A stretch of 64,000 bases of DNA from Clostridiales bacterium (lineage in GTDB: Bacteria; Bacillota; Clostridia; Lachnospirales; WQUN01), in NCBI GenBank assembly GCA_031270945.1, contig JAISWZ010000531.1, positions 13,473 through 77,472 on the forward strand, read 5' to 3'. Under the pieces are notes generated by a model. That model was not told where the DNA came from, did no database searches, and worked only from the letters and a program-made list of their open reading frames with translations. A program made the position numbers and the translations under genes. This document shows positions 33,632 to 52,832 of this stretch, piece after piece (position 1 is the stretch's first letter; each line of letters begins with the position of its first letter).

Positions 33632-33905
33632 TTGTATCTCTCCTTGGTGTTTGCAGAACACCCGTGAACTTAAGGGCACATCCCAATGTATTATGGCTTG
33701 TAAAAGCGCGAAACGTATCGTTGCTGTCAACGAGAAATCCCGCTTTTCCGCCATTCTTGTTTTTTAGGACATGCCCTCAGTGCTTTTCTAGCTTTGCGCA
33801 GAGGATTTTTTTTCTTGCGAGTGGTATCGCTCGCAAGCATAAGAAAAGCGCAACGCTTTTCGACCGTAGTATACCAGAACCCCAACAGGAATTCAACGAC
33901 CAACT

Positions 33906-34919: not shown

Positions 34920-35282
34920 GTCAACCCCCCATTGAGCTTACTTGTGAGCGATAATTCGAAAATATAACTGATGAACGCTCAAACCGGCACCTATTGAAGA
35001 AAGGACAACCAATTTGGCAAAATGTCGATATTTGCGCGGTTTAATTGGATATTTGAATCATAAATATTCATATGGGCCGCCAAAGCGCTGCCCCAAACAT
35101 TCAAGCGTGTCCTGAAGCCCTGGGCTTATGGACGCGCTTTTATACTCGCTGTGATCGGCTGCCGGCTCTTTTAGTCCTATAAAAAACGGCTAACGGCTAA
35201 GAAAAGGCCGCCCTTAGAGCCGCATCATCCTCAAGCCTCGAAAGATGGCAACTCTTTTTGAAAAATGCTGGAGGTGCTTAGC

Positions 35283-35570
35283 ATGATGACAACATGTCCC
35301 AACTGCAATGCGCCGCTCAAGGCAAACTCGGTGTTTTGCGTGAAATGCGGAGAGCGCATAGCGGAGTACAGGTATTGCGCAAACCCGGAGTGCAAGGCTA
35401 AAGACGCTCGCTGCGATGACGATGACATTCACTGCAGGGTCTGCGGAAGCCCGACCGTCGCGCAGTACCCCGCGCCGCCGCCAGAGCCTCCCAAAGTGGA
35501 GGAGGATCGGACTTGGATCGTGATACTAACCTTTATAGCCGCCTTGGTGATGTTTTACTTGACCAAGTGA
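35283..35570 (+). CDS. zinc-ribbon domain membrane protein
   Basis: CPNC..(13)..CVKCG and C..C..CRVCG pairs, C-terminal TM helix. ATG at 35283 lies 6 nt after GGAGGTG. Confidence 0.5.
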   Translation: MMTTCPNCNAPLKANSVFCVKCGERIAEYRYCANPECKAKDARCDDDDIHCRVCGSPTVAQYPAPPPEPPKVEEDRTWIVILTFIAALVMFYLTK

Positions 35571-35741
35571 GGCGCTTTTTTATGGCGAATGCATGTTAGC
35601 GCTATGCCGAAATTTCGCAAACGCCGGACTTTGCAGCCTCAGAAATAAATTTCGGATACCTATTAATTTAGCGCTTGGAATAGCCGATCTCCTTCTTGAG
35701 ATATGCCAAGCTCTTTATTGAGATACGCGAAGGCGCGTCTT

Positions 35742-35842
35742 AGAGCATATCCCAAAATTCCTAAAGAGGCGCAGCGAAAGTCAAAGCACTGCTTTAACGC
35801 GTGACTTTCGCAAGCCCTAAGATTAATTTTGGGATATGCTCT
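35742..35842. repeat. MITE/REP-like palindromic element (GCTTTAACGCGT class)
   Basis: AGAGCATATCCCAAAATTCC ... GCTTTAACGCGTGACTTTCGCAAGCCC ... TTAATTTTGGGATATGCTCT. Confidence 0.85.
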
Positions 35843-36498
35843 TCAGGAAAAGCTTGCATAGCGAGTTTTTCCTTTTTTTAGATCGAACAAAATATTGGAA
35901 ACACAAATGTAACAAAAGTTCCTCGTAAAAATCAGACTATTTTTTAGCAGCATTCGTATTTAGGTTAGTTATTGTTGCTAGATGAACCATGGTCGGACAT
36001 CTGTCTCAAGGATGTGCCTGGAGGGAAGCGCCCCGCCAGCGCGCTCGAAATTGTTCTGGAAGAATCGGCCAGGCAGCCTTGATAAGGAAGGGGAGATGCT
36101 GGTGCGCATGATATAGGGATGCAGACCCGTTAAGCGCATATCCAGAGGCATGAAAATGCTTGAAATAGTATTTGGCCATATTTGAAAAACCGAAGCGGAC
36201 AGCCTTGCACCACAGGCGGGCCCGCTTTAACGCGCTCATCAGTTGAAAACGCAAAGATACGCCCTAAAAAGTGCGAGGATAACCCCTGAACGCTTCAAGG
36301 CCTAAAACTTCGGATTACAAGCCATGACCAATTTTGGGATATGCCCCAAATCTTCGGATTATAAAAGTCGAATCTGCCACCCTGAAAGGCACTCAAGAAG
36401 CGTAGGAATTCGCGAGCGCATGAGAATTGCGGCCTTGCGCTTGCGAGCCATTCGGGCGCGCGTTTGGGCGCGCCAAGATTTACAGGGGGTTGACTCAA

Positions 36499-36771
36499 AT
36501 GATTGTAACTTGCCGGAACTGCGGATCCAAATGCGAAATAGTGGACAACTATTGCAGGCATTGCGGAGCGCTGCTGGAATTGGGTTCTATTACAGGTACA
36601 GAAAGCCCTATTCATAGCGTGCCAAATCTTCCGAGCATCCCTAACATTCCTAGCACAGGGGAATCGCTACCGGAGCCCACTGAGACTATTGAGCCGCACG
36701 AGGACAACACTTTGGTGAACGTCTTGATGATCTTGACATTGATTATCATAATACGCCTTCTCGTGGGGTAG
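36499..36771 (+). CDS. zinc-ribbon domain membrane protein
   Basis: CRNCGS..(9)..CRHCG, Pro/Ser linker, C-terminal TM (VLMILTLIIIIRLLV). Confidence 0.45.
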   Translation: MIVTCRNCGSKCEIVDNYCRHCGALLELGSITGTESPIHSVPNLPSIPNIPSTGESLPEPTETIEPHEDNTLVNVLMILTLIIIIRLLVG

Positions 36772-36996
36772 CCAGGACGGCAGGCCGAATGCGCAAGAGC
36801 GCGTTCAGGCCTTATTTTGGCATCAGCAATTAGCCGGAATACAGGCTGATTTGCGCCAGGACGGCATTGAATCACACAGAGCCTAAGGAAAACTCCTAGG
36901 CTCTTTTTTGTTGCCTTTTTTAGGCGAGGACTGCCCTTGCGAGGACTGCAAAAGAATCGCGCCGGAACATGCCGACGCTTGGATGTGCCGACGCTT

Positions 36997-37052
36997 AGTG
37001 CATATCCCAAAAATCCTTCAGAGCCCTAAAATTAATTTTGGGATATGCACTT
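36997..37052. repeat. short MITE/REP-like palindromic element at the left edge of the AT-rich insert
   Basis: AGTGCATATCCCAAAAATCC...CCTAAAATTAATTTTGGGATATGCACTT. Confidence 0.85.
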
Positions 37053-37246
37053 GGACGCGGATCAATTATAACAGCAGACATATGCTTGCACAATACCAAT
37101 TCTGAAATCGGAAGCGCAGGAGGCCTTGCTGGCAACCACATGCAACGGCTTTTTTTAAGGACACGCTCGTTATTTCGTCAGCCCCCAGCAGATGCTTGCA
37201 AGCGGGATCCTTTTTCGACGACTGGGTTCTGACGCGCGATTGACCC

Positions 37247-37275
37247 TTGAACAAATTTCTGCCGTATGTTAAACT
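37247..37275 (+). promoter_or_regulatory. candidate sigma-A promoter upstream of the defence cassette leader
   Basis: TTGAAC - 17 nt (ending TGT) - TAAACT. An alternative TTGACC lies at 37240. Confidence 0.45.
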
Positions 37276-37281
37276 AGGTTT

Positions 37282-37450
37282 AAAGCCGTGCGAGGGCTCC
37301 GAGAGCGAGTTGGAAAGCGCGGAAACCCGGGCTTTTGAAACCCAAAATTGTAAAAAAGTATACCTTTTTTCCGCCCATGAGAAACTGCAACTCCATAAAG
37401 TCACTTTGCCGGAATTACGGGCTTCGTCCATTGGACGAAGTTCTTTTTTT
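37282..37450 (+). ncRNA. candidate about 170-nt terminated transcript (small RNA or regulatory leader), class unknown
   Basis: Bounded by the promoter above and the terminator at 37422-37450. No SD-preceded ORF and no riboswitch class recognised. Confidence 0.25.
37422..37450 (+). terminator. Rho-independent terminator 1
   Basis: CTTCGTCC-att-GGACGAAG followed by TTCTTTTTTT. Confidence 0.65.
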
Positions 37451-37462
37451 GGGCTTTTTTAG

Positions 37463-37500
37463 GGATTGGAAAAACGTATACCTTTTTCCAATCCGTTTTT
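37463..37500 (+). terminator. Rho-independent terminator 2 (12-bp stem)
   Basis: GGATTGGAAAAA-cgtatacc-TTTTTCCAATCC followed by GTTTTT. Confidence 0.6.
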
Positions 37501-37616
37501 AATTGAGACAAAAGTCTCGAAATGCTAGAAAAGGTCTATCGCGCAAAGCGTATCAGGGGGCAAGTTTCAACATAGGGCCGTTGCGTTTTGCGAAAAAAGC
37601 CAAACCAGACCGGGGG

Positions 37617-40600
37617 ATGCAAATGCAGACGATAGCGAAGCTTTGTGAACCAAGAAAAAACGTCTTTGATGACACCAGCCGTGATGATGTTTTGAACTTA
37701 AGCGATTTCATACAAGGCAAAATCGACCCGACAAAGTTCTTTGATGAGAACTTTACGACCAAGGGCATGGAGATTCTTCTAGAGACTGCGTTCAAGAGGT
37801 TCTCTGGCAAATCTGACACAGGAGTGATAAAGCTCACCCAGGCGATGGGCGGAGGCAAGACGCACAATATGCTCGCTTTGGCGTTGCTTGCTCAAAACCC
37901 TGAATTGCGAAAGCAGATGGTTAACGGGAATTTCGATAACATCGGCGAGATTACGGTAGTAGCGTTTTCTGGGCGAGAGAGCGATGCAAAGTTTGGAGTT
38001 TGGGGGAGCATTGCTGAGCAGCTTGGGAAAAGAGAGTTTTTTGCAAGCTACTACTCTCCTCTGCAAGCCCCTGGCGAAAGCGCATGGGTAAACTTGCTCA
38101 AAGGCAAAAAGGTGCTTATCCTGCTCGATGAACTGCCGCCTTACCTTGTAGACGCAAAATCAAAATTGATAGGAAACTCCGATCTCTGCAACGTGACTGT
38201 TACAGCCTTGTCAAATCTCTTTACTGCAATAGGAAAGGGAGAGTTGGCAAAGGTATGCCTTGTCTTTTCTGATCTGAGGGCAACGTACGAATCTGGCAGC
38301 GTTCTCCTGTCAGAAAGCTTTAAGGAGCTTGAGAGCGAAGCCAATAGAGTTGCGCTGAACCTTGAGCCAGTGGCTTTGAATTCGGACGAGGTATATGACA
38401 TCCTTCGCAAGCGGCTGTTTGTGCGATATCCGAAAGCAGGCTCAAGCGAGGTCAATGAGATCGCAATGGCATACAAGGAAGCGGTAGTTAAGGCAGGGAA
38501 ATCCGGGCTGACAGGGTATCAAGGAGAGAGCGTATACCTTGGGATAAAGGATTCTTACCCCTTTCACCCATGCATCAAGGAATTGTATGCCCGTTTCAAA
38601 GAAAATTCCGGTTTCCAGCAGACGCGAGGCCTTATAAGGCTGATGAGGCAAGTGGTTAGAGACTTTTATGAAAGCGGCAAGGCGGACAAGCAGAACGTCA
38701 TCAACGTATTTGACGTTAACTTGAACGAGAGAGCCATGATTTCTCTCATAAAACAGATCAAGCCTTCTCTTGACTCCGCGATCGACCATGACATCGCTAA
38801 CGGCAACAAAGGCGTTGCTGAAGAAATCGACTTCCACAACAGCGAAAAGAAGGAGCAGTACGCTCAAAGCGTGGCGAAGCTTCTGCTGATGTCATCTCTC
38901 AATGCAACGCCCAATGGCATCTTGGGACTGTCAAGCTCGGATCTGCTGGGGTTTCTCTGCAAGCCAGATACAGACCTCAACGTTTACAAGAAGGCGCTTG
39001 ATGAGCTCCTAAACAAATGCTGGTACCTAAAAACTGACAGTCGTGGCCGCATGTATTTTCAGGACACAAAAAACTTAATTGCCGATATGAACGAACGTGT
39101 GCAAATGTGTACCATTGTTGACACGATAAAAGAACTTAAGAAGATCCTTGGGGCAACTTTCGAGCCGAGGATCAAAAAGTGCTATGAAAAGCTTTTTGTG
39201 CTTCCTGCTATTGATGAGATCCACATTGAGCAAGGCAAGCTTTCTCTTGTGATTTCGGAACCTCATGCTGGATCTGGCCTTCACCCTGATTTGCTGAAGT
39301 TTTACGAAAACTGCCCTTATAAGAATCGCGTCATGTTTCTCTCGGGGCAGTACAACATCATGGAAAAGCTCTATGATAACGTCAATCGCTTCAAGGCTAT
39401 CAGCGATATAATGAACAACATGAGAAAAGAGCATGTTCCAGAGACCGACCAGCAATACAAAGAAGGCGAAAGCCTTTTTGACAAAAATTCAGCTGCATTG
39501 CTGTCGACAATAAGAGAGGCTTTCATAACTTTGTACTATCCAGTTAAAAGCGGGTCATCAACTGTGTTGTCAAATGTTAACATCAAGTTTGAGTTCGTTG
39601 CGAACAAGTGTAATGGAGAAGAGCAAATCGTAAAGGCGCTCACAGAAGAGATGAAGTTTGAGGACTTAAAAACCGATGAGCGCACCCTTGATGCATTGCG
39701 AAGGAAATGTGAAGCCCGCATATTCACGCAAAAAGAAATGCCATGGTCACAGATTCTTGAGAGGGCAGCGACAGAAGTCCAGTGGCAGTGGTATCACCCA
39801 AGGCAGTTGGAAGAGCTTCGCGCGAAGAGCCTCAAGTGCGACGCTTGGAGGGAAGTGGGCGGATATATAGTCAAGGGGCCTTTCCAGAAAGAACCGACGG
39901 AAGTAGTGGTAGTACAGGATGACTACGATTTCCAGACGGCTGTTTTCAAGCTTAAAGTCAAGCCTGTTCGCGGTGACACAGTATACTACGATTTTGGCGC
40001 TGTTCCTACTAAAGCTTCAAACATAGCCCCAGCAACCCTCAATCTCAAAGAGCCGACGGCGAACTTTCTTTGCATAGACAACGCAGACAGCGACAACCCT
40101 CATCCTACCGGGAAGATGCTAACTTGGAAGGGTAAAGTTTCTTTGAAGCGTGATCAAAGGCAAAATGCCAATGGCAACCAGACTTTGGAACTGAAAACCC
40201 ATCCGGATTTCGAGATTCGCTATACTACTGACGGCTCGAACCCGAAGGAAAGCGGTGGCTTGTATAGCGGAGAGATAATTCTTCAGCCAGGCTGCAAGTA
40301 TGTTAAAACTGCTGTCTACTATAACGACGATTTGATTAGCGAAGAAGACATACCCATTATAGCCGCGCCGCAAGGCAAGAAGCTGCTTGCAATCAAAGAC
40401 GACAAACCTCTTGAATACACTTTGAATACGCAAAAGAAGTGCGGCGACACTAGGCTTGCCTATGCTGAGTTTGCAAAGATGGAGCAATTGCCAGGAACTC
40501 GTGTGCACAAATTTACTGTTGTAATCAGCGAAAAGAGCAATTCTGAGAATTACATGGAGATCCAAGCTGTCCAAGTGCCATGGGATGTTAACAACTTGCG

Positions 40601-40769
40601 GTCGATGGTTGACCTTATCAGAGACAAGGCCTTTGCGGCTAAAGATGTTGAGGTCGAGTTTTCGTACAAGATCATCCTTTTTGAAACTGGGGCGGCGTTC
40701 AAACGATGGATAGAAATAAACAAGATAAACGCGAATGAACTTGAGAAAGAGGGCGCAATTAAACAATGA
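37617..40769 (+). CDS. large P-loop ATPase, DUF499-like (defence cassette gene 1)
   Basis: Walker A AMGGGKTHNM, Walker B VLILLDELPPYL. The N-terminal CEPRKNVFDD..RDDVLNLSDF segment matches my memory of DUF499/COG1483. ATG at 37617 or 37623. Confidence 0.8.
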   Translation: MQMQTIAKLCEPRKNVFDDTSRDDVLNLSDFIQGKIDPTKFFDENFTTKGMEILLETAFKRFSGKSDTGVIKLTQAMGGGKTHNMLALALLAQNPELRKQMVNGNFDNIGEITVVAFSGRESDAKFGVWGSIAEQLGKREFFASYYSPLQAPGESAWVNLLKGKKVLILLDELPPYLVDAKSKLIGNSDLCNVTVTALSNLFTAIGKGELAKVCLVFSDLRATYESGSVLLSESFKELESEANRVALNLEPVALNSDEVYDILRKRLFVRYPKAGSSEVNEIAMAYKEAVVKAGKSGLTGYQGESVYLGIKDSYPFHPCIKELYARFKENSGFQQTRGLIRLMRQVVRDFYESGKADKQNVINVFDVNLNERAMISLIKQIKPSLDSAIDHDIANGNKGVAEEIDFHNSEKKEQYAQSVAKLLLMSSLNATPNGILGLSSSDLLGFLCKPDTDLNVYKKALDELLNKCWYLKTDSRGRMYFQDTKNLIADMNERVQMCTIVDTIKELKKILGATFEPRIKKCYEKLFVLPAIDEIHIEQGKLSLVISEPHAGSGLHPDLLKFYENCPYKNRVMFLSGQYNIMEKLYDNVNRFKAISDIMNNMRKEHVPETDQQYKEGESLFDKNSAALLSTIREAFITLYYPVKSGSSTVLSNVNIKFEFVANKCNGEEQIVKALTEEMKFEDLKTDERTLDALRRKCEARIFTQKEMPWSQILERAATEVQWQWYHPRQLEELRAKSLKCDAWREVGGYIVKGPFQKEPTEVVVVQDDYDFQTAVFKLKVKPVRGDTVYYDFGAVPTKASNIAPATLNLKEPTANFLCIDNADSDNPHPTGKMLTWKGKVSLKRDQRQNANGNQTLELKTHPDFEIRYTTDGSNPKESGGLYSGEIILQPGCKYVKTAVYYNDDLISEEDIPIIAAPQGKKLLAIKDDKPLEYTLNTQKKCGDTRLAYAEFAKMEQLPGTRVHKFTVVISEKSNSENYMEIQAVQVPWDVNNLRSMVDLIRDKAFAAKDVEVEFSYKIILFETGAAFKRWIEINKINANELEKEGAIKQ

Positions 40770-41347
40770 GGAAGCAAACCTACGGCTTTGGCGTTGATCC
40801 TGCGCAAAGCAAGAACCACTTCTTTGTGCTGATGCCACAAAAAGAGCTGGACGATGCGCCTCTTGTGCAGATATATGAACGATACTCGTGGACGAATAGC
40901 GACGAGCAAAATCTGGAAGACTCTGATGTTTTGCGCATTGAAATATCGAAGCATAAATGGGGAGAGGTAAAGCTTGCCTTGATTAATGAGTTCAATGCCC
41001 GGCTTAAAAAGGAAGGGTTAAAAGTCGGGAAATTTGCTGCAACTGGAGGCACTCCCATAGAAAGATTGTTCGGCAAAGAGATGATGGTGCTTCTTTGGGG
41101 CATAGAGAACGCCGATCCTTCATACATCCCGACGGCGATACGCAATTGGAGAGGGCTCATGCCAGAAGAGCGTTGGTGGCTATATACGATGACCAACGCC
41201 GCAACCGGAAACATAAATGACAAAACAGGCTGGCGAGCTGCCCTAAGGTTTGCGCTGTGCGAAAACCCTGTGGTGGACCGCCTACAGGTAACCGTGTTTG
41301 ATGATGATATTGGCAAGGGGCCTATAATATATGATCAGTTTCATTGA
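40766..41347 (+). CDS. DUF3780-like small protein (defence cassette gene 2)
   Basis: 193 aa. ATGA start/stop overlap with gene 1. The size and position between the DUF499 and DUF1156 genes fit the recalled operon pattern, but family assignment from memory is weak. Confidence 0.6.
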   Translation: MRKQTYGFGVDPAQSKNHFFVLMPQKELDDAPLVQIYERYSWTNSDEQNLEDSDVLRIEISKHKWGEVKLALINEFNARLKKEGLKVGKFAATGGTPIERLFGKEMMVLLWGIENADPSYIPTAIRNWRGLMPEERWWLYTMTNAATGNINDKTGWRAALRFALCENPVVDRLQVTVFDDDIGKGPIIYDQFH

Positions 41348-44135
41348 AAAACAGTTCCCGGTATCGAAACTCTCAAAAGAGAGCTTTAAAGAGCGAAACG
41401 CAAAAAATGGGCAAACTATTACCGGCCTGGGCAAGTGGTGGGGAAGAAAGCCACTTGTCCTTGTTAGAGCTGCTATCCTCGGATGCTTGATGCCCACAAG
41501 CGACAATCCTCAACGGGACATGGATGTCTTTCTTAAAATTATGAGCATGGATGCCCAAGGGCTATGGTTGCGCCATATGGATAAGATAAACAAATCTGAC
41601 CGATATTGGCAATTAAAAGGAAACGAGTTAAAAAATGACTTTGAAGTGCTTAGCTATGACGAAAAGCTAAAAGCCTGTGTTAGGCCTGAGCAATTTACGC
41701 GCCCCTCTAATGATCAAGTGTGGGATGACATAAACTTGCATCTGGGCACACAGGCGAACAATCTGCAAGACCTCATGCGTCAACTATCAGAAAAGCGCTA
41801 TGGCAAGGGGGCTGTTATAGGTGACTGCTTTTGCGGCGGTGGATCCGTGCCGTTTGAAGCGGCTCGCATGGGGCTTGATGTATACGCTTCGGATTTAAAT
41901 CCTGTTGCCGCACTTTTAACTTGGGCTACGCTAAATATATGTGGCGCGAGTGAAGATGAGCTGAAAGAGATAGAAAAATTCCGAAAAGAAATATATGACA
42001 AAGTAGACAAAGAGATAACTGATTTGGGTATCGAGCATGACGACAATGGAGACCGCGCCTATATGTATCTTTATTGCGTTCAAGTGCGTTGCCCGGAATG
42101 TGGAACTCTTGTTCCTATGTCTCCAAGCTGGGTCATTGGAAAAGGTACAAAAACTGTAGCGCAACTCATAGAAAACGGGGATAAGTATGATATAGCGATT
42201 AAAATGAACGCTAGCGATGATGAGATAAAAACCGCTGAAATTGGCACTGCAACAGACAAAGGTTTGCGTTGTCCGCATTGTGGACGGACAACGCCAATAA
42301 GCGCCTTGCGCCATGACCGTGTTGATGAAAATGGAAATGTAATCTATGGCTTGCGAATGTGGGAGAAGACCGATTTCGAACCTCGTTCTGATGATATACT
42401 CCAGGAAAGGCTATACTGCATCAAATACGAGAAACCCTCGCTCAACCAAAAAAAGGCTGAACGGTATTATCGCGCTCCAAATGCCCGTGATTTGCAGAAC
42501 GAAGAAAAAGTGCGTGAAATTGTTGCTGAAAACATAGAACATTGGCAACGCAATGGGTATATACCAAGTACAGCTATCGAACCTGGCGAAAAGACGATGG
42601 AGGTTATTCGGAATCGCGGCTGGAGTTACTGGCATCATCTTTTTAACGCAAGGCAGTTGCTGCTTATAAGCAGTCTTTCTAAAGCTATTGAAAAAACTCA
42701 AGAATTGAAGCTTCGAGTAACTGGAATGCTGGGATTAAACAAATGCGCTGACTGGAATTCTCGTTTGTGCCGGTGGCATTCGAGCGCCGCAAATGAGAAG
42801 ACAGAACAAACATTCTATAATCAAGCACTGAACACCTTATATAACTGGGGGACACGAAGCCTTATTGGTGCTGAAACTTCCTGGCTTTATGATATAAATA
42901 AGTATCCAACCAATAAAGCTGTGACATGCAAAACTTGCGATGCGCGAACAATTGCTGAGCAATCGGCGCTTTGGATAACGGATCCTCCTTATGCAGATGC
43001 AGTTGTGTATCACGAGCTATCTGAATTATTCCTTTCTTGGGACAAGCGTCAAATCAAAGAAGCCTTCCCTGACTGGTATGCCGACAGCAAGCGAGTTCTT
43101 GCGGTTCGCGGCGATGGCAACTTTGCGCAGGGCATGATAGAAATCTACACCAACCTCACGAACCACATGCCTGATGACGGCATGCAAGTCGTGATGTTCA
43201 CTCATTCTGACTCTGCGGTATGGGCTCAGCTAGCCTTGATCATGTGGAAGGCAGGGCTAAAGGTCACAGCGGCTTGGAACATTGCCACCGAGACCGAAGC
43301 TGGAGGGTTAAAGGAAGGCAACTTCGTTAAAGGGACTGTGCTGTTGGTCTTGCGCAAGAGAACGGGAACCGACGAGGCGTTTCTCGACGAGATAAACGCA
43401 GAAATTAAAAGAGAGGTTGTCAGCCAGATAGAAAGCATGCGAGAACTGGATGAAAAGGAAGAACCCAACTTCGCTGATCCAGACTTTGTTCTAGCGGCGT
43501 ATGCCGCAAGCTTGAAAGTGCTGACATCGTATTCATCAATAGGGGAAATAGACCTTGACTATGAGCTTGAACTGGCTATTGCCAAGTCTCCGCTATCAAA
43601 GATAGTCGAATTGATAGAGCGAGCCAAGAAACAGGCTTACGACTGCATTATCCCTATAGGATTCGATGGCTTCTTGTGGAGAGACCTCTTCCCTTCTGAG
43701 CGGTTCTATATCAAGGGATTGGAAGCCGAGAAAAAAGGCGATTACCAAGTTTCAACTTACCAAGAATATGCAAGGGGCTTTGCGTTAACGAGCTACAAGT
43801 CGCTTTTAGCTAAAGCCAAGGCAAATGAGTGCCGCCTGAAAACACCCTCGGAGTTTGCCATGAGGACAACCAATGATGTGCCTGGTTTTGAGAACTCCAC
43901 ATTGAGGCTTGTGCTTGCGTCAATATACGTCTCGATAAAGGAGGACGAGCAGCCTGCAAAGGGTTTGTCGCATTTGAAAAACAACCTTGTTGACTATTGG
44001 GGCAAGCGCGACTTGCTAAAGCAGCTCCTGACATTCCTGAAGGACACAAAGAACATAACCAATATGCCTCACTGGAGCCAAGCGGCTGCCATGGCTGAGC
44101 ATATATACGTGCTTCTTGACAACGACAATATTTGA
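41331..44135 (+). CDS. DUF1156-type Zn-ribbon DNA amino-methyltransferase (defence cassette gene 3)
   Basis: N-terminus IEKQFPVSKLSKES...GLGKWWGRKPLVLVRA (DUF1156 signature). SAM motif I DCFCGGGSVPFEA, motif IV TDPPYAD. CPECG and CPHCG Zn-ribbon pairs. 17-nt overlap with gene 2. Confidence 0.88.
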   Translation: MISFIEKQFPVSKLSKESFKERNAKNGQTITGLGKWWGRKPLVLVRAAILGCLMPTSDNPQRDMDVFLKIMSMDAQGLWLRHMDKINKSDRYWQLKGNELKNDFEVLSYDEKLKACVRPEQFTRPSNDQVWDDINLHLGTQANNLQDLMRQLSEKRYGKGAVIGDCFCGGGSVPFEAARMGLDVYASDLNPVAALLTWATLNICGASEDELKEIEKFRKEIYDKVDKEITDLGIEHDDNGDRAYMYLYCVQVRCPECGTLVPMSPSWVIGKGTKTVAQLIENGDKYDIAIKMNASDDEIKTAEIGTATDKGLRCPHCGRTTPISALRHDRVDENGNVIYGLRMWEKTDFEPRSDDILQERLYCIKYEKPSLNQKKAERYYRAPNARDLQNEEKVREIVAENIEHWQRNGYIPSTAIEPGEKTMEVIRNRGWSYWHHLFNARQLLLISSLSKAIEKTQELKLRVTGMLGLNKCADWNSRLCRWHSSAANEKTEQTFYNQALNTLYNWGTRSLIGAETSWLYDINKYPTNKAVTCKTCDARTIAEQSALWITDPPYADAVVYHELSELFLSWDKRQIKEAFPDWYADSKRVLAVRGDGNFAQGMIEIYTNLTNHMPDDGMQVVMFTHSDSAVWAQLALIMWKAGLKVTAAWNIATETEAGGLKEGNFVKGTVLLVLRKRTGTDEAFLDEINAEIKREVVSQIESMRELDEKEEPNFADPDFVLAAYAASLKVLTSYSSIGEIDLDYELELAIAKSPLSKIVELIERAKKQAYDCIIPIGFDGFLWRDLFPSERFYIKGLEAEKKGDYQVSTYQEYARGFALTSYKSLLAKAKANECRLKTPSEFAMRTTNDVPGFENSTLRLVLASIYVSIKEDEQPAKGLSHLKNNLVDYWGKRDLLKQLLTFLKDTKNITNMPHWSQAAAMAEHIYVLLDNDNI

Positions 44136-44170
44136 TGAAAGAATTCGCGATTGGCGCTGCCTATGCTTTG

Positions 44171-44187
44171 AGAGCATATCCCAAAAC
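44171..44187. repeat. solitary half-site of the MITE/REP-like family inside the cassette
   Basis: AGAGCATATCCCAAAAC between the methyltransferase stop (44135) and the helicase start (44229). Confidence 0.7.
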
Positions 44188-44228
44188 ATGGGACAAGCTC
44201 TTGATTGCGAAGCGAGGAGTTTTTCAAT

Positions 44229-46982
44229 GTGAATCGGTACTCATCTCGCACAAACAAGCTGGGAGAGCTCCTTGTCAAAAAGCTTGAGAACGCTGCAAGC
44301 TATGACCGCATAGCTGGGTACTTCTGCTCATCCATTTTGGAAGTGGCGGGAGAGGCGATTGAAAAGGTCACAGGAAAAGTCCGGGTGATCTGCAACTCAG
44401 GCCTTTCGCCTGAGGATGTGAAGACAGCCGCTCTCGCCAAGACTACCATGAGGCAAGCATGGAATGACTTTAGGCCAGAGGCGGTTTATACGTCAAGCGG
44501 AGCTACGAACAGACTTAGGCGGCTATACAACCTTTTAAAATCAGGGAAGATGGAAGTCAAAGTCTTGCCTGATGAGATCTTTGGGCTGATGCATGGCAAA
44601 GCGGGCATTGTGACATACCGTGACGGCAGCAAAATTTGCTTTCTGGGCAGCGTCAATGAAACAAAGAGCGCTTTTACCACAAACTATGAGATCATGTGGG
44701 AAGACAGCGACCCAGTCTCAGTTGAATGGGTGCAGTCCGAGTTTGACGCGTTTTGGCGCGACAAGAACGCAGTGCCTCTTTCGGAATATGTGATAGAGGA
44801 CATTAAGCGCGTGTCTGAGCGGCGCACCATCTCCTTGAAAGACTGGAGAGAGGTTGGAGAAAACGCTGTTCAGGCTGTAGCTGTAGAAGAGCCCATTTAC
44901 CGGAACGAGTTGGGTTTATGGGCTCACCAGAAGTATTTCGTAGCTCGCGCCTTTAAGGAGCATAAGCAGAGAGGCGGCGCCAGGCTATTGCTGGCAGATC
45001 AGGTTGGGCTGGGCAAGACCATTCAGCTTGCGATGGTTGCAAAACTGATAGCGCTTTATGATGAGAAGCCCATTCTGATAATTGTTCCCAAAACGCTATT
45101 GCTCCAATGGCAGAGCGAGCTCAAAGCCATGCTAAACATGCCGTCAGCCATATGGACGGGACGGTTGTGGATCGATGAAAACGGATATGAATATCCAGCT
45201 GACAGCCTGAAAGCGATCACCAAGTGCCCCAGAAAAGTAGGGATTGTCTCGCAAGGGCTGATAACAGCCAAAACTGAATCGTCAGAACTTTTGAAGTCAT
45301 TGCGCTACTCATGCGTGATACTGGATGAAGCCCACAGAGCCAGGCGCAAGAACCTTGGCAAAGACCATGACAAGAACAAGGCGCAAATGAACAACCTGCT
45401 TCAGTACATGACAGAGATATCTGGAAGAACCAAAAGCATGCTCCTGGCAACGGCAACCCCTGTGCAAATTGACCCGATTGAGGCGTTTGACCTTCTCATG
45501 GCGCTGTCGATACCCAGAGAGGCTGAAAAGGTGCTTGGAGACAATTACAGCGTATGGAGAAGAACTCCAGCGCTTGCCATCAAATACATTGAGGAAGAAG
45601 CGCCTTGGCCGACTGCTGACGCCGAGATGTGGGAAATTGTCCGAAACCCCTTTCCTTTGCAATCCGAGAACAATACGCGAATAGGCACTTTGCGCTCCCA
45701 ATTGGACATTTCAGAAGATGTTTCCGTGTTGCCGCAAAGCCTGTTTGATGAGATGAGTGTGCCTCAAAAAAATAGGGTGAAGGCGCTCTATTACGATGAC
45801 AGATTTATCAAAACTCATAACCCCTATATTCGGTCGATAGTCAGGAGAACTCGCGACTTTCTGGAGAGCAACGCCAATCCTGAAACTGGCGAGCCATATT
45901 TGAAGAAAATTGAGGCTGTGCTCCTTGGCGAAAATGACTCCGAGTCGTTGGAACTGGTCGGCTACCAGCTTCAGGCATATCAAATCGCTGAGGAATTCTG
46001 CAAATTGCTCGTGTCCAGGGTAAGAACCGGAGGATTCATGGCAGTTCTGATCTTGAAAAGAATCGGAAGCACAATGTTTTCAGGTGAAAGCACTGCCAAA
46101 AAACTTCTGTCAAGGGCAACAGAAGGGAAAGATAAGTTGCGACAGGCATTTGAAGAGCTTGAAGAAGAAGACGGATCTGATGACTCAGCTTCGAACGAAA
46201 TCCTGGATCTGTCACAAGAAGAGATAGAATGCTTGGAAAAGTTGGTAGCGGTACTTAACTCCAATACAGACACTGACCCCAAATACAATCGCATCAAAGA
46301 GATTCTCACAAAGGGCGTCGATGACGAGGGCGCTTGGAAAGACAAAGGCTGCATCCTGTTCACCCAGTATTTTGACAGCGCGGTATTTGTGGCTGAAAGC
46401 TTGTCCAGGGATTTTGCTGGCTTGCCTATAGGCCTTTACGCTGGCGGAGACAAATCTGGCATATATAAAGACGGCCTTTTCAAGCGCGAGGGAAAGGACG
46501 ATATTAAGAGCCTTGTTAAAGATCGAGCACTCACATTGCTTGTGGGAACTGACGCCGCTTCAGAAGGGCTGAACCTTCAAGCCCTAGGAACGCTAATCAA
46601 CATCGATCTCCCATGGAACCCCACAAGGCTTGAGCAACGCAAAGGGCGCATCCAGCGCATTGGGCAGTTGGCGGACAAAATATACATTTACAATATGCGG
46701 TACAAGGATTCGGTTGAGGACAATGTTCACATAAAGCTGTCAAAGAGGCTGAAGGATATTCATGCTCTCTTTGGCCAAATTCCTGATGTTCTTGAGGATG
46801 TCTGGGTTTCGATTGCGCTCGACGACGAAGCTCAGGCGGAGCTTGCCATAAACAAGCTGCCGACAAAGAATCCATTTGTGCTCAAGTACGAAGAGTCCAT
46901 TCCTGATTGTGGAGATTGGGAAAAGTGCTCATTGGTGCTGGATGAAAAAGACAAGCTAAAAGAGCTTTTGAAGTGCTGGTAA
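44229..46982 (+). CDS. PLD(HKD)-nuclease-like domain fused to SNF2-family helicase (defence cassette gene 4)
   Basis: Single HKD motif HGKAGIV...GSVNET. Helicase motifs LLADQVGLGKT (I), VILDEAHRARR (II), LLATATPVQ (III), GTDAASEGLNLQ (V), RLEQRKGRIQRIGQ (VI). GTG at 44229 lies 9 nt after GAGGAG. Confidence 0.88.
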   Translation: MNRYSSRTNKLGELLVKKLENAASYDRIAGYFCSSILEVAGEAIEKVTGKVRVICNSGLSPEDVKTAALAKTTMRQAWNDFRPEAVYTSSGATNRLRRLYNLLKSGKMEVKVLPDEIFGLMHGKAGIVTYRDGSKICFLGSVNETKSAFTTNYEIMWEDSDPVSVEWVQSEFDAFWRDKNAVPLSEYVIEDIKRVSERRTISLKDWREVGENAVQAVAVEEPIYRNELGLWAHQKYFVARAFKEHKQRGGARLLLADQVGLGKTIQLAMVAKLIALYDEKPILIIVPKTLLLQWQSELKAMLNMPSAIWTGRLWIDENGYEYPADSLKAITKCPRKVGIVSQGLITAKTESSELLKSLRYSCVILDEAHRARRKNLGKDHDKNKAQMNNLLQYMTEISGRTKSMLLATATPVQIDPIEAFDLLMALSIPREAEKVLGDNYSVWRRTPALAIKYIEEEAPWPTADAEMWEIVRNPFPLQSENNTRIGTLRSQLDISEDVSVLPQSLFDEMSVPQKNRVKALYYDDRFIKTHNPYIRSIVRRTRDFLESNANPETGEPYLKKIEAVLLGENDSESLELVGYQLQAYQIAEEFCKLLVSRVRTGGFMAVLILKRIGSTMFSGESTAKKLLSRATEGKDKLRQAFEELEEEDGSDDSASNEILDLSQEEIECLEKLVAVLNSNTDTDPKYNRIKEILTKGVDDEGAWKDKGCILFTQYFDSAVFVAESLSRDFAGLPIGLYAGGDKSGIYKDGLFKREGKDDIKSLVKDRALTLLVGTDAASEGLNLQALGTLINIDLPWNPTRLEQRKGRIQRIGQLADKIYIYNMRYKDSVEDNVHIKLSKRLKDIHALFGQIPDVLEDVWVSIALDDEAQAELAINKLPTKNPFVLKYEESIPDCGDWEKCSLVLDEKDKLKELLKCW

Positions 46983-47066
46983 GCCTGCTCTGTGTGGCAA
47001 GAACTCCTGCCGCTCTGGGAATGCGAAAGAAAAGCGGAACTGGCGTGAACACGTTGCTTTTTATAA

Positions 47067-47168
47067 AGAGCATATCCCAAAATTTTATCCGAGGCGCCGG
47101 AAAAATCCGGCGTTGAAGCATTCGCCAGGATTTTTCCGGCGCCATTTCGGAATTTTGGGATATGCACT
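47067..47168. repeat. MITE/REP-like palindromic element (near-perfect long palindrome) just after the cassette
   Basis: AGAGCATATCCCAAAATTTTATCCGAGGCGCCGGAAAAATCCGGCG...CGCCAGGATTTTTCCGGCGCCATTTCGGAATTTTGGGATATGCACT. Confidence 0.9.
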
Positions 47169-47469
47169 AAGAGATGCGTCTTGTGATTTACAAGGCTCAT
47201 CTCTTTTTTGTGTGCGACGATATTTTTGCTATTGCCGTCATGCCAGAATATTTTAATGCGAGCCAACAAAATCACTTGCAATAAGCTTTTGAAAGATGTA
47301 TGCTTTAACCGTAAAACAAATTTGGATGGAATTCTAGTCAGGTGCATATTCATGGAAATAACGGGTTGCGACGAAAATAACCTTCTAAACCTTGCAAACC
47401 CTGCAACTCATGAAACCCCTCTAAGCCCCCAAGCCGCAAGATGAAACAAAGAAATGGAGCTGAACAAAG

Positions 47470-47751
47470 ATGTCGCTAACAAAATCTGTGGTACGAACGA
47501 GAGAAAATGTCAGGACGCATAGGGGCCTGAAAGATAAAATCGCTGAATTGGAACGGGAGCTGGTGCGCAAGGACGAAGAGATCAAAGGCAAAGAGCGCGA
47601 ATTAGAATATAAGGAAGTACTGCTGAAGCACAAAGATGGATGGCTTGAAGGCAAGAACAAAGTGATCGCAAGCAAGGATGAAATTATAAGGATTTTAAAA
47701 CTGCATATAAACATTGTGGTATCCAGGCAAGAAAAGAAGAGGATGCCATAA
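47470..47751 (+). CDS. small coiled-coil protein (paralogue A)
   Basis: 93 aa, heptad-rich. Shares LK(D/E)KIAEL...LKHKD...(N/D)(K/R)VIASKDE.I.IL...V.SR.E with the 48197 ORF. Confidence 0.45.
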   Translation: MSLTKSVVRTRENVRTHRGLKDKIAELERELVRKDEEIKGKERELEYKEVLLKHKDGWLEGKNKVIASKDEIIRILKLHINIVVSRQEKKRMP

Positions 47752-47771
47752 ACTTAAAACTGGGTTTCTGG

Positions 47772-48143
47772 TTGGAAGCATCTAGCGAATGGAGGGCTGA
47801 ATCATTGACTACTAATATGATAGTTGACGATGAAAGAAAGCGCCTTTTGGCAAATGCAGTCTTGCGATTGGACCATGCCCGAGAAATGAGGATACAGGCC
47901 AAAATAATAGCGGATTTGGAAGAAAAATGCAAAGTCAAAGCTGAAGAGATTAGAATTTTAAGGGAAGAAAATAAAGATCGCGCTCAATGGTTTGCAGCCT
48001 TGGTTGAATCTGATAAAGCTGAGGCTGAAGAGAGAAAGGCCAGAGAAGAGATCTTTGAGTCTCTTGAGTTTGACAAGATAATAAGGGAGAAAATTGAGTC
48101 TTTGGCAAAAATCACTCCGATCACTTCGGCAAGAGAAAGTTAA
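47772..48143 (+). CDS. small coiled-coil protein (start uncertain)
   Basis: 123-aa charged helical ORF between the two paralogues. TTG 47772 and ATG 47817 both lack a convincing SD. Confidence 0.35.
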   Translation: MEASSEWRAESLTTNMIVDDERKRLLANAVLRLDHAREMRIQAKIIADLEEKCKVKAEEIRILREENKDRAQWFAALVESDKAEAEERKAREEIFESLEFDKIIREKIESLAKITPITSARES

Positions 48144-48196
48144 GGTGTTTAGGATACAAGCTTGCTGTTGAGAAAGTTGAGAAAGGAAAGCTTATA

Positions 48197-48490
48197 ATGA
48201 AGTTGTCTGCCGTAATTGAAGAGAAATACAAGTTGTTCAAGAATAATAAGAAATTAAAAGAAAAAATCGCCGAATTAAACAAGAAGTTAGAAGCCAAGGA
48301 CTGTGAGCAAAAAGACAGGGACGCCGACCTGAGACGCAAGGATGCTGAGCTGAAGCACAAGGATAAGATGTTTGAAAGCAAGGACAGAGTGATCGCAAGC
48401 AAGGATGAAAGCATCGAGATTTTAGACGCTACGCTGCAGTTTGTCTTGTCAAGAGCCGAGAACGAGAACGCGATTCCAATATCCAATTAA
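48197..48490 (+). CDS. small coiled-coil protein (paralogue A')
   Basis: 97 aa, roughly half identical by eye to the 47470 ORF over the central 70 aa. ATG after GAAAGGAAAG. Confidence 0.45.
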   Translation: MKLSAVIEEKYKLFKNNKKLKEKIAELNKKLEAKDCEQKDRDADLRRKDAELKHKDKMFESKDRVIASKDESIEILDATLQFVLSRAENENAIPISN

Positions 48491-48513
48491 CAGCCCGACA
48501 CGTCCTAACACTC

Positions 48514-48542
48514 AAAGCCCCAGCCATTGACTGGGGCTTTTC
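48514..48542. terminator. bidirectional terminator between the coiled-coil genes (+) and GH2 (-)
   Basis: AAAGCCCCAG-ccattga-CTGGGGCTTTT. Confidence 0.7.
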
Positions 48543-48576
48543 ATATCCGTGAGAAGCTTTCACTGCATGCCAGCTA

Positions 48577-52772: not shown

Positions 52773-52832
52773 AGCGCATATCCCAAAATTCCATCTTTCA
52801 CAAGCCATAAAATTAATTTTGGGATATGATCT
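52773..52832. repeat. short MITE/REP-like palindromic element
   Basis: AGCGCATATCCCAAAATTCC...CACAAGCCATAAAATTAATTTTGGGATATGATC. Confidence 0.85.

Follow-up and report, generated by a model that had tools for sequence, protein, structure and literature searches.

Organization of the operon and its boundaries

The window considered here, that is, the whole stretch of 64,000 nucleotides that was analysed, carries four tightly coupled genes on the plus strand at 37617-46982, as judged from the ORF list and the translations (all features described below are given on this strand). The first gene, mtsA (37617-40769), codes for a predicted DUF499 AAA+ ATPase of 1050 aa, counted from the ATG; its ORF opens farther upstream, at TTG 37503, and the start was taken at the ATG because both the homologues and the NCBIfam model align from residue 4-5 of the ATG-started protein. 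The start codon of mtsB (40766-41347), which encodes a standalone DUF3780 protein of 193 aa, overlaps the mtsA stop in a 4-nt ATGA (40766-40769), and mtsB shares 17 nt (41331-41347) with mtsC (41331-44135), the gene of a predicted DUF1156 N6-adenine DNA methyltransferase of 934 aa. The last gene, mtsD (44229-46982), is separated from mtsC by a 93-nt gap (44136-44228); it starts with GTG, is preceded at a distance of 9 nt by the ribosome-binding site AGGAG (44215-44219), and specifies a 917-aa protein in which an N-terminal HKD/PLD nuclease domain is followed by an SF2/Snf2-type ATPase. The four co-directional, coupled genes and the junctions between them, as described in the first-pass annotation, are thereby confirmed by the ORFs and translations. 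All four genes are intact, full-length and translationally coupled, and every catalytic residue is present; the ORFs cover 98-100% of their relatives, with no frameshifts or stops.

Besides the mtsD ribosome-binding site, the mtsC-mtsD spacer (44136-44228) contains a degenerate half-copy of a palindromic repeat that is dispersed in the host genome (core at 44174-44186, found by repeat search), and its folding yields a weak hairpin (z = -2.2). The promoter scan returned a sigma-70-like match, TTGACA-17-AAGAAT with TG, at 44116-44144, which, being a match to the consensus, marks a putative promoter. At the upstream boundary (37419-37494), just 5' of the operon leader, the terminator scan found two terminator-like hairpins, one at 37419-37443 and the other formed by a nearly perfect palindrome of 32 nt (37463-37494), each with a T-run after it; these hairpins represent a putative insulator or operator. 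At the downstream boundary (47067-47205), the host palindromic repeat is present in full (47067-47168) and folds into a very stable hairpin (-64.9 kcal/mol, z = -11); behind it, the same terminator scan found, at 47178-47205, another terminator-like hairpin that has a T-run. The small-ORF listing shows no regulator gene (MtsR/CopG, RHH or HTH) within 700 bp upstream of mtsA, and phmmer with the E. coli CopG protein as query retrieved no relative upstream of mtsA. Since neither MtsR nor another regulator is present there, regulation may differ from that in the characterised systems.

Family assignment of the gene products

The protein families named in the first-pass annotation each received HMM support from PADLOC, Pfam and NCBIfam, with E-values between 1e-38 and 1e-282, and the motifs that it had quoted for the first, third and fourth genes are all found in the translations. 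The best PADLOC matches, each essentially full-length, are to the models DUF499 for MtsA (PDLC02192, 8e-174), DUF3780 for MtsB (PDLC02191, 8e-38), DUF1156_MTase for MtsC (PDLC02189, 6e-282) and PLD_Helicase for MtsD (PDLC02193, 3e-231). The Pfam families DUF499, DUF3780, DUF1156, PLDc_2, SNF2-rel_dom and Helicase_C all score above their gathering scores. Judged by these profile scores, the family matches are far beyond chance.

Specifically, MtsA matches Pfam DUF499 with 82.9 bits (cutoff 23) and aligns with the PADLOC DUF499 model over aa 3-1034; additional Pfam matches are to CHB_HEX_C_1 and Fn3_assoc, and the C-terminal tail includes an FnIII-like module at aa 852-908. Its Walker A motif GGGK81TH (within AMGGGKTH) and Walker B motif LLD171E172LPP (within VLILLDELPP) are 100% conserved in 54 homologues. 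MtsB matches PF12635 with 151 bits (cutoff 27) and shows 30 invariant columns, PEERWWL among them, in an 11-sequence cross-phylum alignment. MtsC, which matches Pfam DUF1156 with 77 bits and begins with the segment FPVSKLSKES...GLGKWWGRKPL, carries methyltransferase motif I (F167CGGGS) and motif IV (D551PPY554, within TDPPYAD) about 380 aa apart, with a central insert, the target recognition domain (TRD), in between; F167CGGG and D551PPY554 are 100% conserved in the homologues. In addition to the two CxxC pairs CPEC and CPHC, there is a third one, CKTC, at aa 533, and the conservation profile places the least conserved segments of the protein at aa 76-105, 436-465 and 511-540. In MtsD, PLDc_2 (aa 16-176) is followed by SNF2-rel_dom and Helicase_C; the HKD motif HGKAGIV...GSVNET (H122, K124) and the ATPase motifs GLGK263T, D366EAH, TATP and QRKGRIQRIGQ (motif VI) are 100% conserved in 49 homologues. 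For the operon as a whole, the catalytic residues show 100% conservation in 50-68 homologues. Sequence searches of the PDB retrieved no relatives of MtsA, MtsB or MtsC; the best matches of MtsD were RapA and other eukaryotic-type Snf2 ATPases, i.e., generic Snf2 proteins only.

In NCBIfam, all four proteins match the "anti-phage" equivalog models and no others. MtsC (NF042963, 1278 bits) and MtsD (NF042964, 1203 bits) exceed the respective cutoffs of 1000 and 1100 bits, whereas MtsA (NF042962, DUF499_antiphage, 731 bits) and MtsB (NF042961, DUF3780_antiphage, 140.5 bits) remain below the cutoffs of 1200 and 200 bits, even though both alignments are full-length. Hence PGAP would name the latter two just DUF499 and DUF3780 domain-containing proteins, and such domain-only naming is seen on a Desulfosarcina plasmid. 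This shortfall is a matter of an annotation threshold derived from narrower seeds and not a feature of the system.

Identity of the system

On the strength of these sequence comparisons, we argue that the locus is, with a probability of about 0.93, a complete and apparently functional MANTIS defence operon, mtsA-mtsB-mtsC-mtsD. The same system goes under the names Gao_RL (in DefenseFinder) and Gao_29 or GAO_29, which we take to be the PADLOC name; the mapping of PDLC02189-02193 onto GAO_29 follows from the names of the models and from the equation of Gao_RL with Gao_29 in the preprint referred to below, rather than from a PADLOC system call.

For this system, validation against phages came from Gao et al. 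(Science 2020), with work in E. coli, as cited in 10.64898/2026.09.23.753747. In 2026, it was classified in NAR as the Type-2 DUF499-centred BREX-related (BR) system (PMC12839542), and a bioRxiv preprint of September 2026, with P. aeruginosa AZPAE15024 as the model, renamed it MANTIS, with the components MtsA-D (10.64898/2026.09.23.753747). The Type-2 BR system is defined by a DUF499 ATPase with FnIII-like tail modules, a DUF1156 methyltransferase with a TRD insert, a standalone DUF3780 protein, and a fusion of an HKD domain with a Swi2/Snf2 ATPase (PMC12839542). The DUF499 ATPase, DUF3780, the DUF1156 methyltransferase, the HKD-Snf2 fusion and the A-B-C-D gene order are all found here. The standalone DUF3780 gene, found in 98% of Type-2 taxa, is a marker specific for this type (PMC12839542); here, mtsB is flanked by mtsA and mtsC, each of which it overlaps. 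The residues of the P. aeruginosa proteins that are essential for methylation or restriction, namely, K80 and E174 of MtsA, D621 and Y624 of MtsC, and H122 and K260 of MtsD (10.64898/2026.09.23.753747), have as their counterparts K81, E172, D551, Y554, H122 and K263, all of which are 100% conserved among 50-59 relatives.

Since Gao_RL was validated in 2020 and its mechanism was dissected in 2026 under the name MANTIS, this is not a new system: it is of a known, named and validated kind, and this copy, though somewhat divergent, is an ordinary one. The statement of the first-pass annotation that no validated or mechanistic description existed was, accordingly, wrong, considering Gao et al. 2020, the Gao_RL entry of DefenseFinder, the models NF042961-NF042964, the Type-2 BR class and MANTIS; what was supposed to be an uncharacterised system is already recognised by standard annotation, that is, by the PADLOC models and NCBIfam.

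Relatives and genomic setting

Conservation of the four genes as a unit was assessed by gene-neighbourhood analysis, with an affirmative result: the A-B-C-D order on one strand was found in 45 of the 46 loci that had enough flanking sequence around an MtsB relative. These syntenic loci come from Bacillota, Synergistota, Bacteroidota, Methanosarcina and further groups. In E. coli, UMNK88 and another 16 complete genomes show the same order, as do plasmids of A. baumannii, B. cereus and Desulfosarcina. Full-length identity to the proteins of E. coli UMNK88 is 28% for MtsA, 38% for MtsB, 38% for MtsC and 36% for MtsD, and identity to the nearest public genome is at most 76%; look-ups of the exact sequences of MtsC, MtsB and PTS enzyme I in public assemblies gave no record. 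Megablast of the operon against the complete E. coli genomes gave no match; sensitive blastn against E. coli recovered just a 126-nt stretch of mtsD, which pointed to the annotated E. coli locus. Phages, in turn, carry orphan or captured MtsB-type genes, which, by virtue of being phage-borne, are candidate anti-MANTIS factors and may interest specialists more than the locus in the window. Proteus phage Pm34, for instance, has a truncated MtsB (gp4) and an MtsA tail (gp5). In one orphan DUF3780 ORF, the N-terminal extension was considered as a fragment of an MtsA tail; this was rejected, there being no similarity, and the start assigned to the long ORF is probably not genuine.

The operon stands alone among carbohydrate genes. 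The chromosome is probably of a Gram-positive (Bacillota) type, to judge from the glycoside hydrolases, SLH domains and FliK-like protein that the window encodes and from its PTS genes, and the Rfam scan of the window gave a single match, tRNA-Gln at 3459-3530. It was correctly noted before that no classical restriction endonuclease, S subunit or integrase is nearby, and this holds for both the operon and its neighbourhood. A mobile element was considered and rejected, as integrase, transposase and att-like direct repeats are all absent; the repeats flanking the operon, considered as att sites, turned out to be a genome-wide host element. The defence-island reading was likewise rejected: there are no other PADLOC matches nearby, and tblastx against the relatives revealed neither similarity nor shared flanks outside the four genes.

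The G+C content of the operon is 0.46, compared to about 0.51 in the flanks, which would suit an acquired element, perhaps a declining one. It is therefore worth asking whether the operon might be inactive or decaying, or kept as a solitary modification module, so that it would provide no defence in the present host. The invasion of the mtsC-mtsD spacer by the host repeat and the missing regulator would fit such a state; however, the four ORFs are full-length and unbroken, every catalytic residue is intact, and both the translational coupling and a good mtsD ribosome-binding site have been kept, so that we consider decay quite improbable and retain the interpretation of the locus as a complete MANTIS operon.

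A Cys4 site in the methyltransferase and the divergence of the clade

The central TRD insert of MtsC carries a Cys4 site made up of C254, C257, C314 and C317. This site is 97-100% conserved in 58 members of the clade to which this copy belongs, whereas it is degenerate in the MtsC proteins of E. coli, A. baumannii, B. cereus and Desulfosarcina. Most of the clade, of which at least 58 members were sampled, is made up of Bacillota and Synergistota. The main text of PMC12839542 and that of the preprint 10.64898/2026.09.23.753747 do not mention it. The site is probably a zinc site, that is, a zinc ribbon within the TRD. Tentatively, the Cys4 module of the clade could provide for a distinct way of reading the DNA site or of being loaded with the help of MtsA, in a copy that has no dedicated regulator, although we think this rather unlikely.

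The same evidence bears on the broader question of whether the locus, while belonging to the MANTIS family, represents a Bacillota-type clade that differs in detail from the P. aeruginosa model. The candidate differences may include the length or geometry of the recognised site, via the Cys4 module, a constitutive, MtsR-free expression, and a partial uncoupling of mtsD from mtsABC. In favour of such differences, one could cite the identity of only 28-38% to the E. coli proteins, the distribution of the Cys4 site, the absence of a regulator gene upstream, and the 93-nt mtsC-mtsD gap with its host-repeat remnant and promoter-like match. However, the catalytic motifs and the domain order equal those of the characterised systems, the Cys4 site may have no more than a structural role, only a consensus hit underlies the putative promoter, and the MtsR repressor (Arc/CopG), which is present in some operons, is optional and not a defining feature in the published systems (10.64898/2026.09.23.753747). 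Hence this possibility appears doubtful, and the operon is preferably viewed as a MANTIS copy of the characterised kind. Being specific to the clade, the Cys4 site of the TRD constitutes a minor structural difference that lends itself to testing, and a divergent MANTIS representative of the Gram-positive type could broaden the comparison with regard to the activation of methylation by MtsB and to the question of whether MtsD cuts DNA.

A possible mode of action

The mechanism considered for this copy is based on experiments with the P. aeruginosa homologue only and is transferred here by homology. In that homologue, the MtsA ATPase loads the methyltransferase, the DUF3780 protein co-activates methylation, and restriction needs both; an asymmetric 6-bp site is hemimethylated, as it is by the homologues listed in REBASE; and phage and plasmid restriction depends on all four proteins and both ATPases, with a preference for inverted sites (10.64898/2026.09.23.753747). 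Thus, the roles of the ATPase and of the 193-aa protein, which had been regarded as open, are probably the loading of the methyltransferase and the co-activation of methylation, respectively, if the homologue is a guide (10.64898/2026.09.23.753747). A restriction-modification-like anti-phage system, with the DUF1156 methyltransferase as the marker of self DNA and the PLD-SNF2 protein as an ATP-dependent nuclease effector, essentially as suggested earlier, agrees with what has been described for the homologues (10.64898/2026.09.23.753747; PMC12839542).

By analogy, MtsC would be a monomeric N6-adenine methyltransferase, the central TRD of which would read a short asymmetric site (6 bp in the characterised systems). 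MtsC alone would be unable to engage DNA and would have to be loaded, in a nucleotide-dependent manner, by the AAA+ ATPase MtsA, whereupon the small dimeric DUF3780 protein MtsB would trigger methyl transfer and ATP hydrolysis by MtsA would allow turnover. The host genome would end up hemimethylated at every site, and this would serve as the self mark; a methylated host genome, and not one poor in sites, would thus be expected. On unmodified incoming DNA, the site-bound MtsABC complex would license dimeric MtsD; with two motors of the Snf2 type and a single, shared PLD active site, this dimer is proposed to translocate and to cut upon meeting another MtsABC complex. Inverted (head-on) pairs of sites would be strongly restricted, and direct repeats or single sites only weakly. 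In P. aeruginosa, a catalytically dead MtsC is tolerated only if MtsD has a nuclease mutation as well. The nuclease activity of MtsD of the model system has not been reconstituted in vitro (10.64898/2026.09.23.753747). It is from the homologues that we infer the activity of the operon in its host, its recognition site, and the inverted-site rule for this copy; extending site length, orientation rule and MtsB dependence to it would be a far extrapolation, given the 28-38% identity to the E. coli proteins and the scores of MtsA and MtsB below the NCBIfam cutoffs.

Comparison with known systems

Several neighbouring families share parts of this architecture, and weaker PADLOC matches to their models were obtained, namely, HmaC (7.5e-53), HmaB (1e-32), HmaA (4.5e-38), DrmD (2e-39), BrxHI/II (1e-31) and PglXI (4e-13). 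As far as can be judged from the profiles, these weak matches to Hma, Drm, Brx and Pgl models reflect real but distant homology. Could the operon then belong to Hma (Type-1 BR), Type-3 BREX or class 1 DISARM? With the MANTIS-type models, the bit scores are higher by a factor of 4-8 and the matches extend over the full length, and each of the three families departs from the locus in its own way, which leaves such an assignment hardly credible; the locus is best assigned to MANTIS.

The Hma system consists of the helicase-nuclease HmaA, the DUF1156 methyltransferase HmaB and the DUF499 ATPase HmaC, with the same presumed restriction-modification-like logic. The standalone DUF3780 and the N-terminal HKD domain that are present here are both lacking in this Type-1 system: it has no DUF3780 protein, and in its helicase a TUDOR domain at the N-terminus and a nuclease of the REase type (DUF3883) take the place of HKD (PMC12839542). 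MtsD has no TUDOR domain. On MtsD, the HmaA model scores 129 bits, compared to 768 bits for PLD_Helicase (PADLOC).

BREX resembles MANTIS in that the latter has a BrxC-related AAA+ ATPase of the ORC/Cdc6 clade, asymmetric 6-bp hemimethylation and specificity directed by the methyltransferase. The PglZ phosphatase, BrxC and BrxA/BrxB characterise BREX of Types 1-6, and Type 3 BREX comprises BrxC, PglXI, BrxHII, PglZ, BrxA, BrxB and BrxF; PglZ, BrxA, BrxB and BrxL are absent here, and neither the operon nor the 20 neighbouring ORFs yielded a match to a dedicated PglZ or Brx component beyond the distant homology to BrxHI/II and PglXI. Furthermore, the predicted effector here is a PLD-helicase nuclease, MtsC belongs to the alpha group of methyltransferases, unlike the gamma-group PglX of BREX, and restriction by MANTIS depends on site orientation whereas that by BREX does not.

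Class 1 DISARM (DrmD Snf2 helicase, DrmMI, DrmA, DrmB and the PLD protein DrmC) likewise combines a Snf2-type helicase, an adenine methyltransferase and a PLD nuclease. However, PLD and helicase are fused here, and of the DISARM core, which comprises the DrmA helicase, DrmB and DrmC, DrmA and DrmB (DUF1998) are absent from the operon and its neighbours; the DrmD model gives 164 bits on MtsD, compared to a cutoff of 610 bits, the DrmA and DrmD matches being due to the shared SF2 core only.

Other systems are analogous to MANTIS in mechanism and do not belong to its family. The Type IV enzyme SauUSI is a dimeric PLD nuclease with an SF2 motor, to which MtsD is structurally similar (10.64898/2026.09.23.753747); SauUSI has a TRD of its own, targets modified cytosines and is autonomous, whereas MtsD depends on MtsABC and attacks unmodified DNA. 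With the Type III and Type ISP enzymes, MANTIS has in common hemimethylation, the preference for inverted sites and ATP-driven long-range communication; its orientation rule, however, is graded and not absolute.

By comparison with the characterised MANTIS, the operon differs in a few respects. E. coli MANTIS includes an MtsR (CopG) gene and an extra REase gene downstream, and MtsR is lacking in this copy; MtsB is short (193 aa, compared to 366 aa in E. coli); the TRD of MtsC has the conserved Cys4 site, which the proteins of E. coli, Acinetobacter and B. cereus lack; and the operon is found alone among carbohydrate genes and not in a tRNA-linked island. Otherwise, the four proteins are the same, their genes agree in order and orientation, all residues that are essential in the model are present, and the architecture is shared throughout: an AAA+ DUF499 ATPase with an FnIII-like tail, a standalone DUF3780 protein, a DUF1156 alpha-group methyltransferase with a central TRD, and an HKD domain joined to a Snf2 ATPase.

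Architecture and identity of the operon

The operon comprises four genes, all on the plus strand: mtsA (gene 1, 37617-40769, 1050 aa counted from the ATG), mtsB (gene 2, 40766-41347, 193 aa), mtsC (gene 3, 41331-44135, 934 aa) and mtsD (gene 4, 44229-46982, 917 aa), the last with a GTG start and an AGGAG 9 nt upstream of it. The mtsA frame is open from a TTG at 37503; alignments with homologues and with the NCBIfam model start at residue 4-5 as numbered from the ATG. The first-pass annotation, made from the sequence alone, had described four co-directional genes joined by an ATGA overlap, a 17-nt overlap and a 93-nt gap; the orientation is borne out by the ORF list and the translations, the junctions are exact, and every motif that it quoted is found in the translated proteins. 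The G+C content of the operon is ~0.46 vs ~0.51 in its surroundings.

In PADLOC, the best matches were full-length, namely, DUF499 (8e-174), DUF3780 (8e-38), DUF1156_MTase (5.7e-282) and PLD_Helicase (3.4e-231), with far weaker scores of the same proteins against the Hma, DrmD, BrxH and PglX models. The Pfam families found were DUF499, DUF3780, DUF1156, PLDc_2, SNF2-rel_dom and Helicase_C, and residues 852-908 of MtsA carry CHB_HEX_C_1 and Fn3_assoc modules. Each protein also matched one NCBIfam "anti-phage" equivalog (NF042962, NF042961, NF042963 and NF042964): the methyltransferase (1278 bits vs 1000) and the PLD-helicase (1203 vs 1100) passed the curated cutoff, and the ATPase (731 vs 1200) and the DUF3780 protein (140.5 vs 200) remained below it despite full-length alignment. 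Together, the PADLOC, Pfam and NCBIfam matches support all the families that had been named from the sequence.

We conclude, with a probability of about 0.93, that the operon is a MANTIS, or Type-2 BREX-related (BR), system. MANTIS, with components MtsA-D, is the new name (bioRxiv, 24 September 2026, 10.64898/2026.09.23.753747; hereafter, the MANTIS preprint) for Gao_RL, alias Gao_29, whose validation dates from Gao et al. (Science 2020) and which the preprint equates with BR Type-2. A survey of the Type-2 BR system across 1120 taxa (Rakesh & Krishnan, NAR 2026, PMC12839542) describes a DUF499 AAA+ ATPase with, in 53%, tandem FnIII-like domains ahead of a C-terminal RRM, a standalone DUF3780 gene in 98% of Type-2 taxa, a DUF1156 N6-methyltransferase with an inserted target-recognition domain (TRD), and an HKD plus Swi2/Snf2 helicase (83%). 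The initial view of the operon as undescribed and of unknown mechanism is refuted by the 2020 validation, by PMC12839542 and by the MANTIS preprint; its functional inference, a restriction-modification-like anti-phage system, was good and agrees with the preprint. The Introduction of the latter has "DUF3870" for MtsB, probably a typographical slip, given that Pfam here and PMC12839542 point to DUF3780 (PF12635 / IPR024220); this spelling could conceal the link between MtsB and DUF3780 from text searches.

Conservation of the cassette and its catalytic residues

When the window MtsB was scanned against one genome per GTDB species, 171 relatives were found, 44-76% identical to it, and 80 loci were kept; the hosts include Bacillota, Synergistota, Bacteroidota, Lentisphaerota, Saccharibacteria, Methanosarcina, Methanolobus and others. 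Among the 46 loci with at least 3.3 kb upstream and at least 6.5 kb downstream, tblastn with the four window proteins placed the genes in the order A-B-C-D on one strand in 45, so that their conservation as a unit, on which the sequence-only reading depended, holds. A tblastx comparison of window positions 33000-50000 with all related loci detected no similarity except in the four genes; hence, the inherited unit is exactly the four-gene cassette. The closest relative in the genome collection, a Bacillota MAG, is 68-76% identical, and the public assembly index holds no record of the exact window proteins.

In alignments of 50-68 homologues per protein, the Walker A lysine and Walker B DE of MtsA, the FxGGG and DPPY of MtsC, and H122/K124, GLGKT, E367/H369 of DEAH, TATP and motif VI of MtsD are 100% conserved; these residues are the counterparts of those mutated in the MANTIS preprint. 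The four genes are intact, all the essential residues are there and synteny is conserved, and an inactive window copy seems very improbable.

The system is present in 17 of 5426 complete E. coli genomes (sensitive blastn). Full-length identity between the window and the E. coli UMNK88 proteins is 28% for A, 38% for B, 38% for C and 36% for D. The UMNK88 copy belongs to an integrase-containing tRNA-Phe island, where McrC and IS elements are its neighbours. Its PGAP annotation reads, in order, CopG RHH, DUF499, DUF3780 (366 aa), DUF1156, PLD-like anti-phage protein and restriction endonuclease. MtsC relatives were detected by tblastn on 150 plasmids, full-length in 30, and annotated copies of all four genes occur on conjugative plasmids of A. 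baumannii, one B. cereus plasmid and one Desulfosarcina plasmid. On the conjugative A. baumannii plasmid NZ_CP017649.1, the MANTIS genes adjoin a Tn7-like tnsE and have an XRE regulator upstream.

Some relatives depart from the common layout. A minority (loci L004, L005, L042, L043, L052, L055, L071, L077 and L078; L083, 9925-11382) have a 1.3-2.2 kb insert between mtsC and mtsD, annotated on the Desulfosarcina plasmid as an ATP-binding protein; mtsA of that plasmid is split, with DUF499 and the FN3-associated region in separate pieces.

Genomic surroundings and a dispersed palindromic repeat

Next to the operon are epimerase and alpha-amylase genes at one end and a GH2 mannosidase gene at the other, and the rest of the window encodes PTS components, glycoside hydrolases, a FliK-like protein, a surface protein of 2261 aa that combines a GH59 domain with InlB B-repeats and three SLH domains (23169-29954, minus strand), and a 563-aa SWIM zinc-finger protein otherwise without annotation (53662-55353, plus strand). 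No further defence genes were found near the operon, and no gene for MtsR, the Arc/CopG repressor of some MANTIS operons, or for another small regulator was found upstream of mtsA; some relatives have XRE- or MerR-type HTH genes there. The 2.7 kb upstream of the operon are repeat-rich and poorly coding apart from two plus-strand genes for small proteins, both of which combine a zinc ribbon with a hydrophobic tail at the C-terminus (35265-35570 and 36427-36771). Just 3' of the operon, three short ORFs (47470-47751, 47772-48143 and 48197-48490, plus strand; 93-123 aa) encode coiled-coil paralogues, whose common motifs include KIAEL...KDRVIASKDE.I.IL and which have no match in Pfam or PADLOC.

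Stable hairpins occur on both sides of the operon. Positions 37463-37494, which end 123 nt ahead of the mtsA start codon, form a near-perfect 32-nt palindrome, GGATTGGAAAAACGTA/TACCTTTTTCCAATCC, that may serve as an operator or be no more than a terminator; its core, AAAAA[A/C]GTATACCTTTTT, recurs 118 nt farther upstream, at 37347-37369. A sigma-70-like match, by consensus only (TTGACA-17 nt-AAGAAT with an upstream TG, 44116-44144), spans the mtsC stop codon, and this putative promoter could allow separate transcription of mtsD.

Window-wide, an intergenic palindromic repeat with the core GCATATCCCAAAA occurs 26 times vs 0.15 expected, with a longer form, AGAGCATATCCCAAAATT and its complement; examples lie at 9308-9382, 16384-16508, 23083-23156, 35742-35842, 36997-37051, 47067-47168, 52776-52829 and 63096-63144. 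Most copies are inverted pairs with 23-110 nt spacing and variable hairpins within, and they fold into very stable stem-loops (z = -5 to -11); a degenerate solo half-copy sits in the mtsC-mtsD spacer at 44174-44186. The repeat has no Rfam family, was not found in any of 81 related loci searched, and resembles a host element of the REP or MITE kind.

Phage-borne and orphan MtsB-type genes

DUF3780 genes also occur apart from the cassette. An uncultured Clostridia MAG (L053, 10001-10540) has a DUF3780 gene 49% identical to the window MtsB, with none of the A, C and D genes at the locus; the surrounding module resembles a prophage and includes ORF6N, SSB, a Spo0A_C-like protein, a DUF3799 PDDEXK nuclease and a lysin. 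Orphan copies with no MtsA, MtsC or MtsD nearby are found on two IMG/VR contigs (L085, 28-564; L087, 3569-3913), and a third contig (L086) carries the full four-gene system. In the lambdoid Proteus phage vB_PvuS_Pm34, 1126 bp (KY420199.1, 1114-2239) match the MANTIS locus of E. coli at 92% identity: gp5 (1666-2193) is equivalent to the 175 C-terminal residues of MtsA (93% identity), and gp4 (1105-1620) to the 170 N-terminal residues, the DUF3780 domain, of the 366-aa MtsB (98% identity), whose C-terminal half is absent from gp4. This segment, the sole such case among 50,697 phage records, may be a captured anti-MANTIS decoy or a mere recombination remnant. Since the MANTIS preprint leaves escaper phages unexplained and anticipates factors that counter MANTIS, the phage-borne MtsB-type genes are candidates for this role, which is only a lead.

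Mechanism and comparison with known systems

According to the MANTIS preprint, MtsA, a BrxC-related AAA+ protein of the ORC/Cdc6 clade, is dimeric, as is MtsB, which has no structural relatives; MtsC is a monomer and belongs to the alpha group of methyltransferases, and MtsD is a SauUSI-like dimer with one shared PLD site, the nuclease activity of which is still to be reconstituted. In P. aeruginosa, CAACAC is hemimethylated by MtsC, swapping of the MtsC TRD switches both modification and restriction specificity, restriction requires the four proteins together with the PLD histidine H122 and the Walker A lysine K260 of MtsD, and inverted site pairs are favoured. By homology, the mechanism of the window operon is most likely that of MANTIS. 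MtsA would load MtsC onto an asymmetric site, MtsB and ATP would set off methylation, and ATP hydrolysis would permit turnover, so that the host genome would be hemimethylated; on unmodified incoming DNA, MtsABC would license the MtsD dimer to translocate and cut, with the strongest restriction expected between inverted sites. Activity in the present host, the recognition site and the dependence on site orientation are what we infer for the window operon.

MtsC conservation is lowest at residues 76-105, 436-465 and 511-540; the latter two segments lie within the TRD and, by analogy with the region swapped in P. aeruginosa, are candidate specificity loops. The TRD also holds a Cys4 site, CPEC...CPHC (C254, C257, C314 and C317), 97-100% conserved in 58 clade members, whereas in MtsC of E. 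coli, A. baumannii, B. cereus and Desulfosarcina it is degenerate, with one or two cysteines left. The main texts of PMC12839542 and the MANTIS preprint do not mention a zinc site. Given MANTIS identity, it is possible, albeit rather unlikely, that the clade differs in mechanistically meaningful detail; the Cys4 site sets it apart, and the catalytic residues are common to all the aligned homologues. E. coli UMNK88 differs further in its additional restriction endonuclease gene 3' of mtsD. The window operon is a new, divergent copy of MANTIS, a system that has itself already been described.
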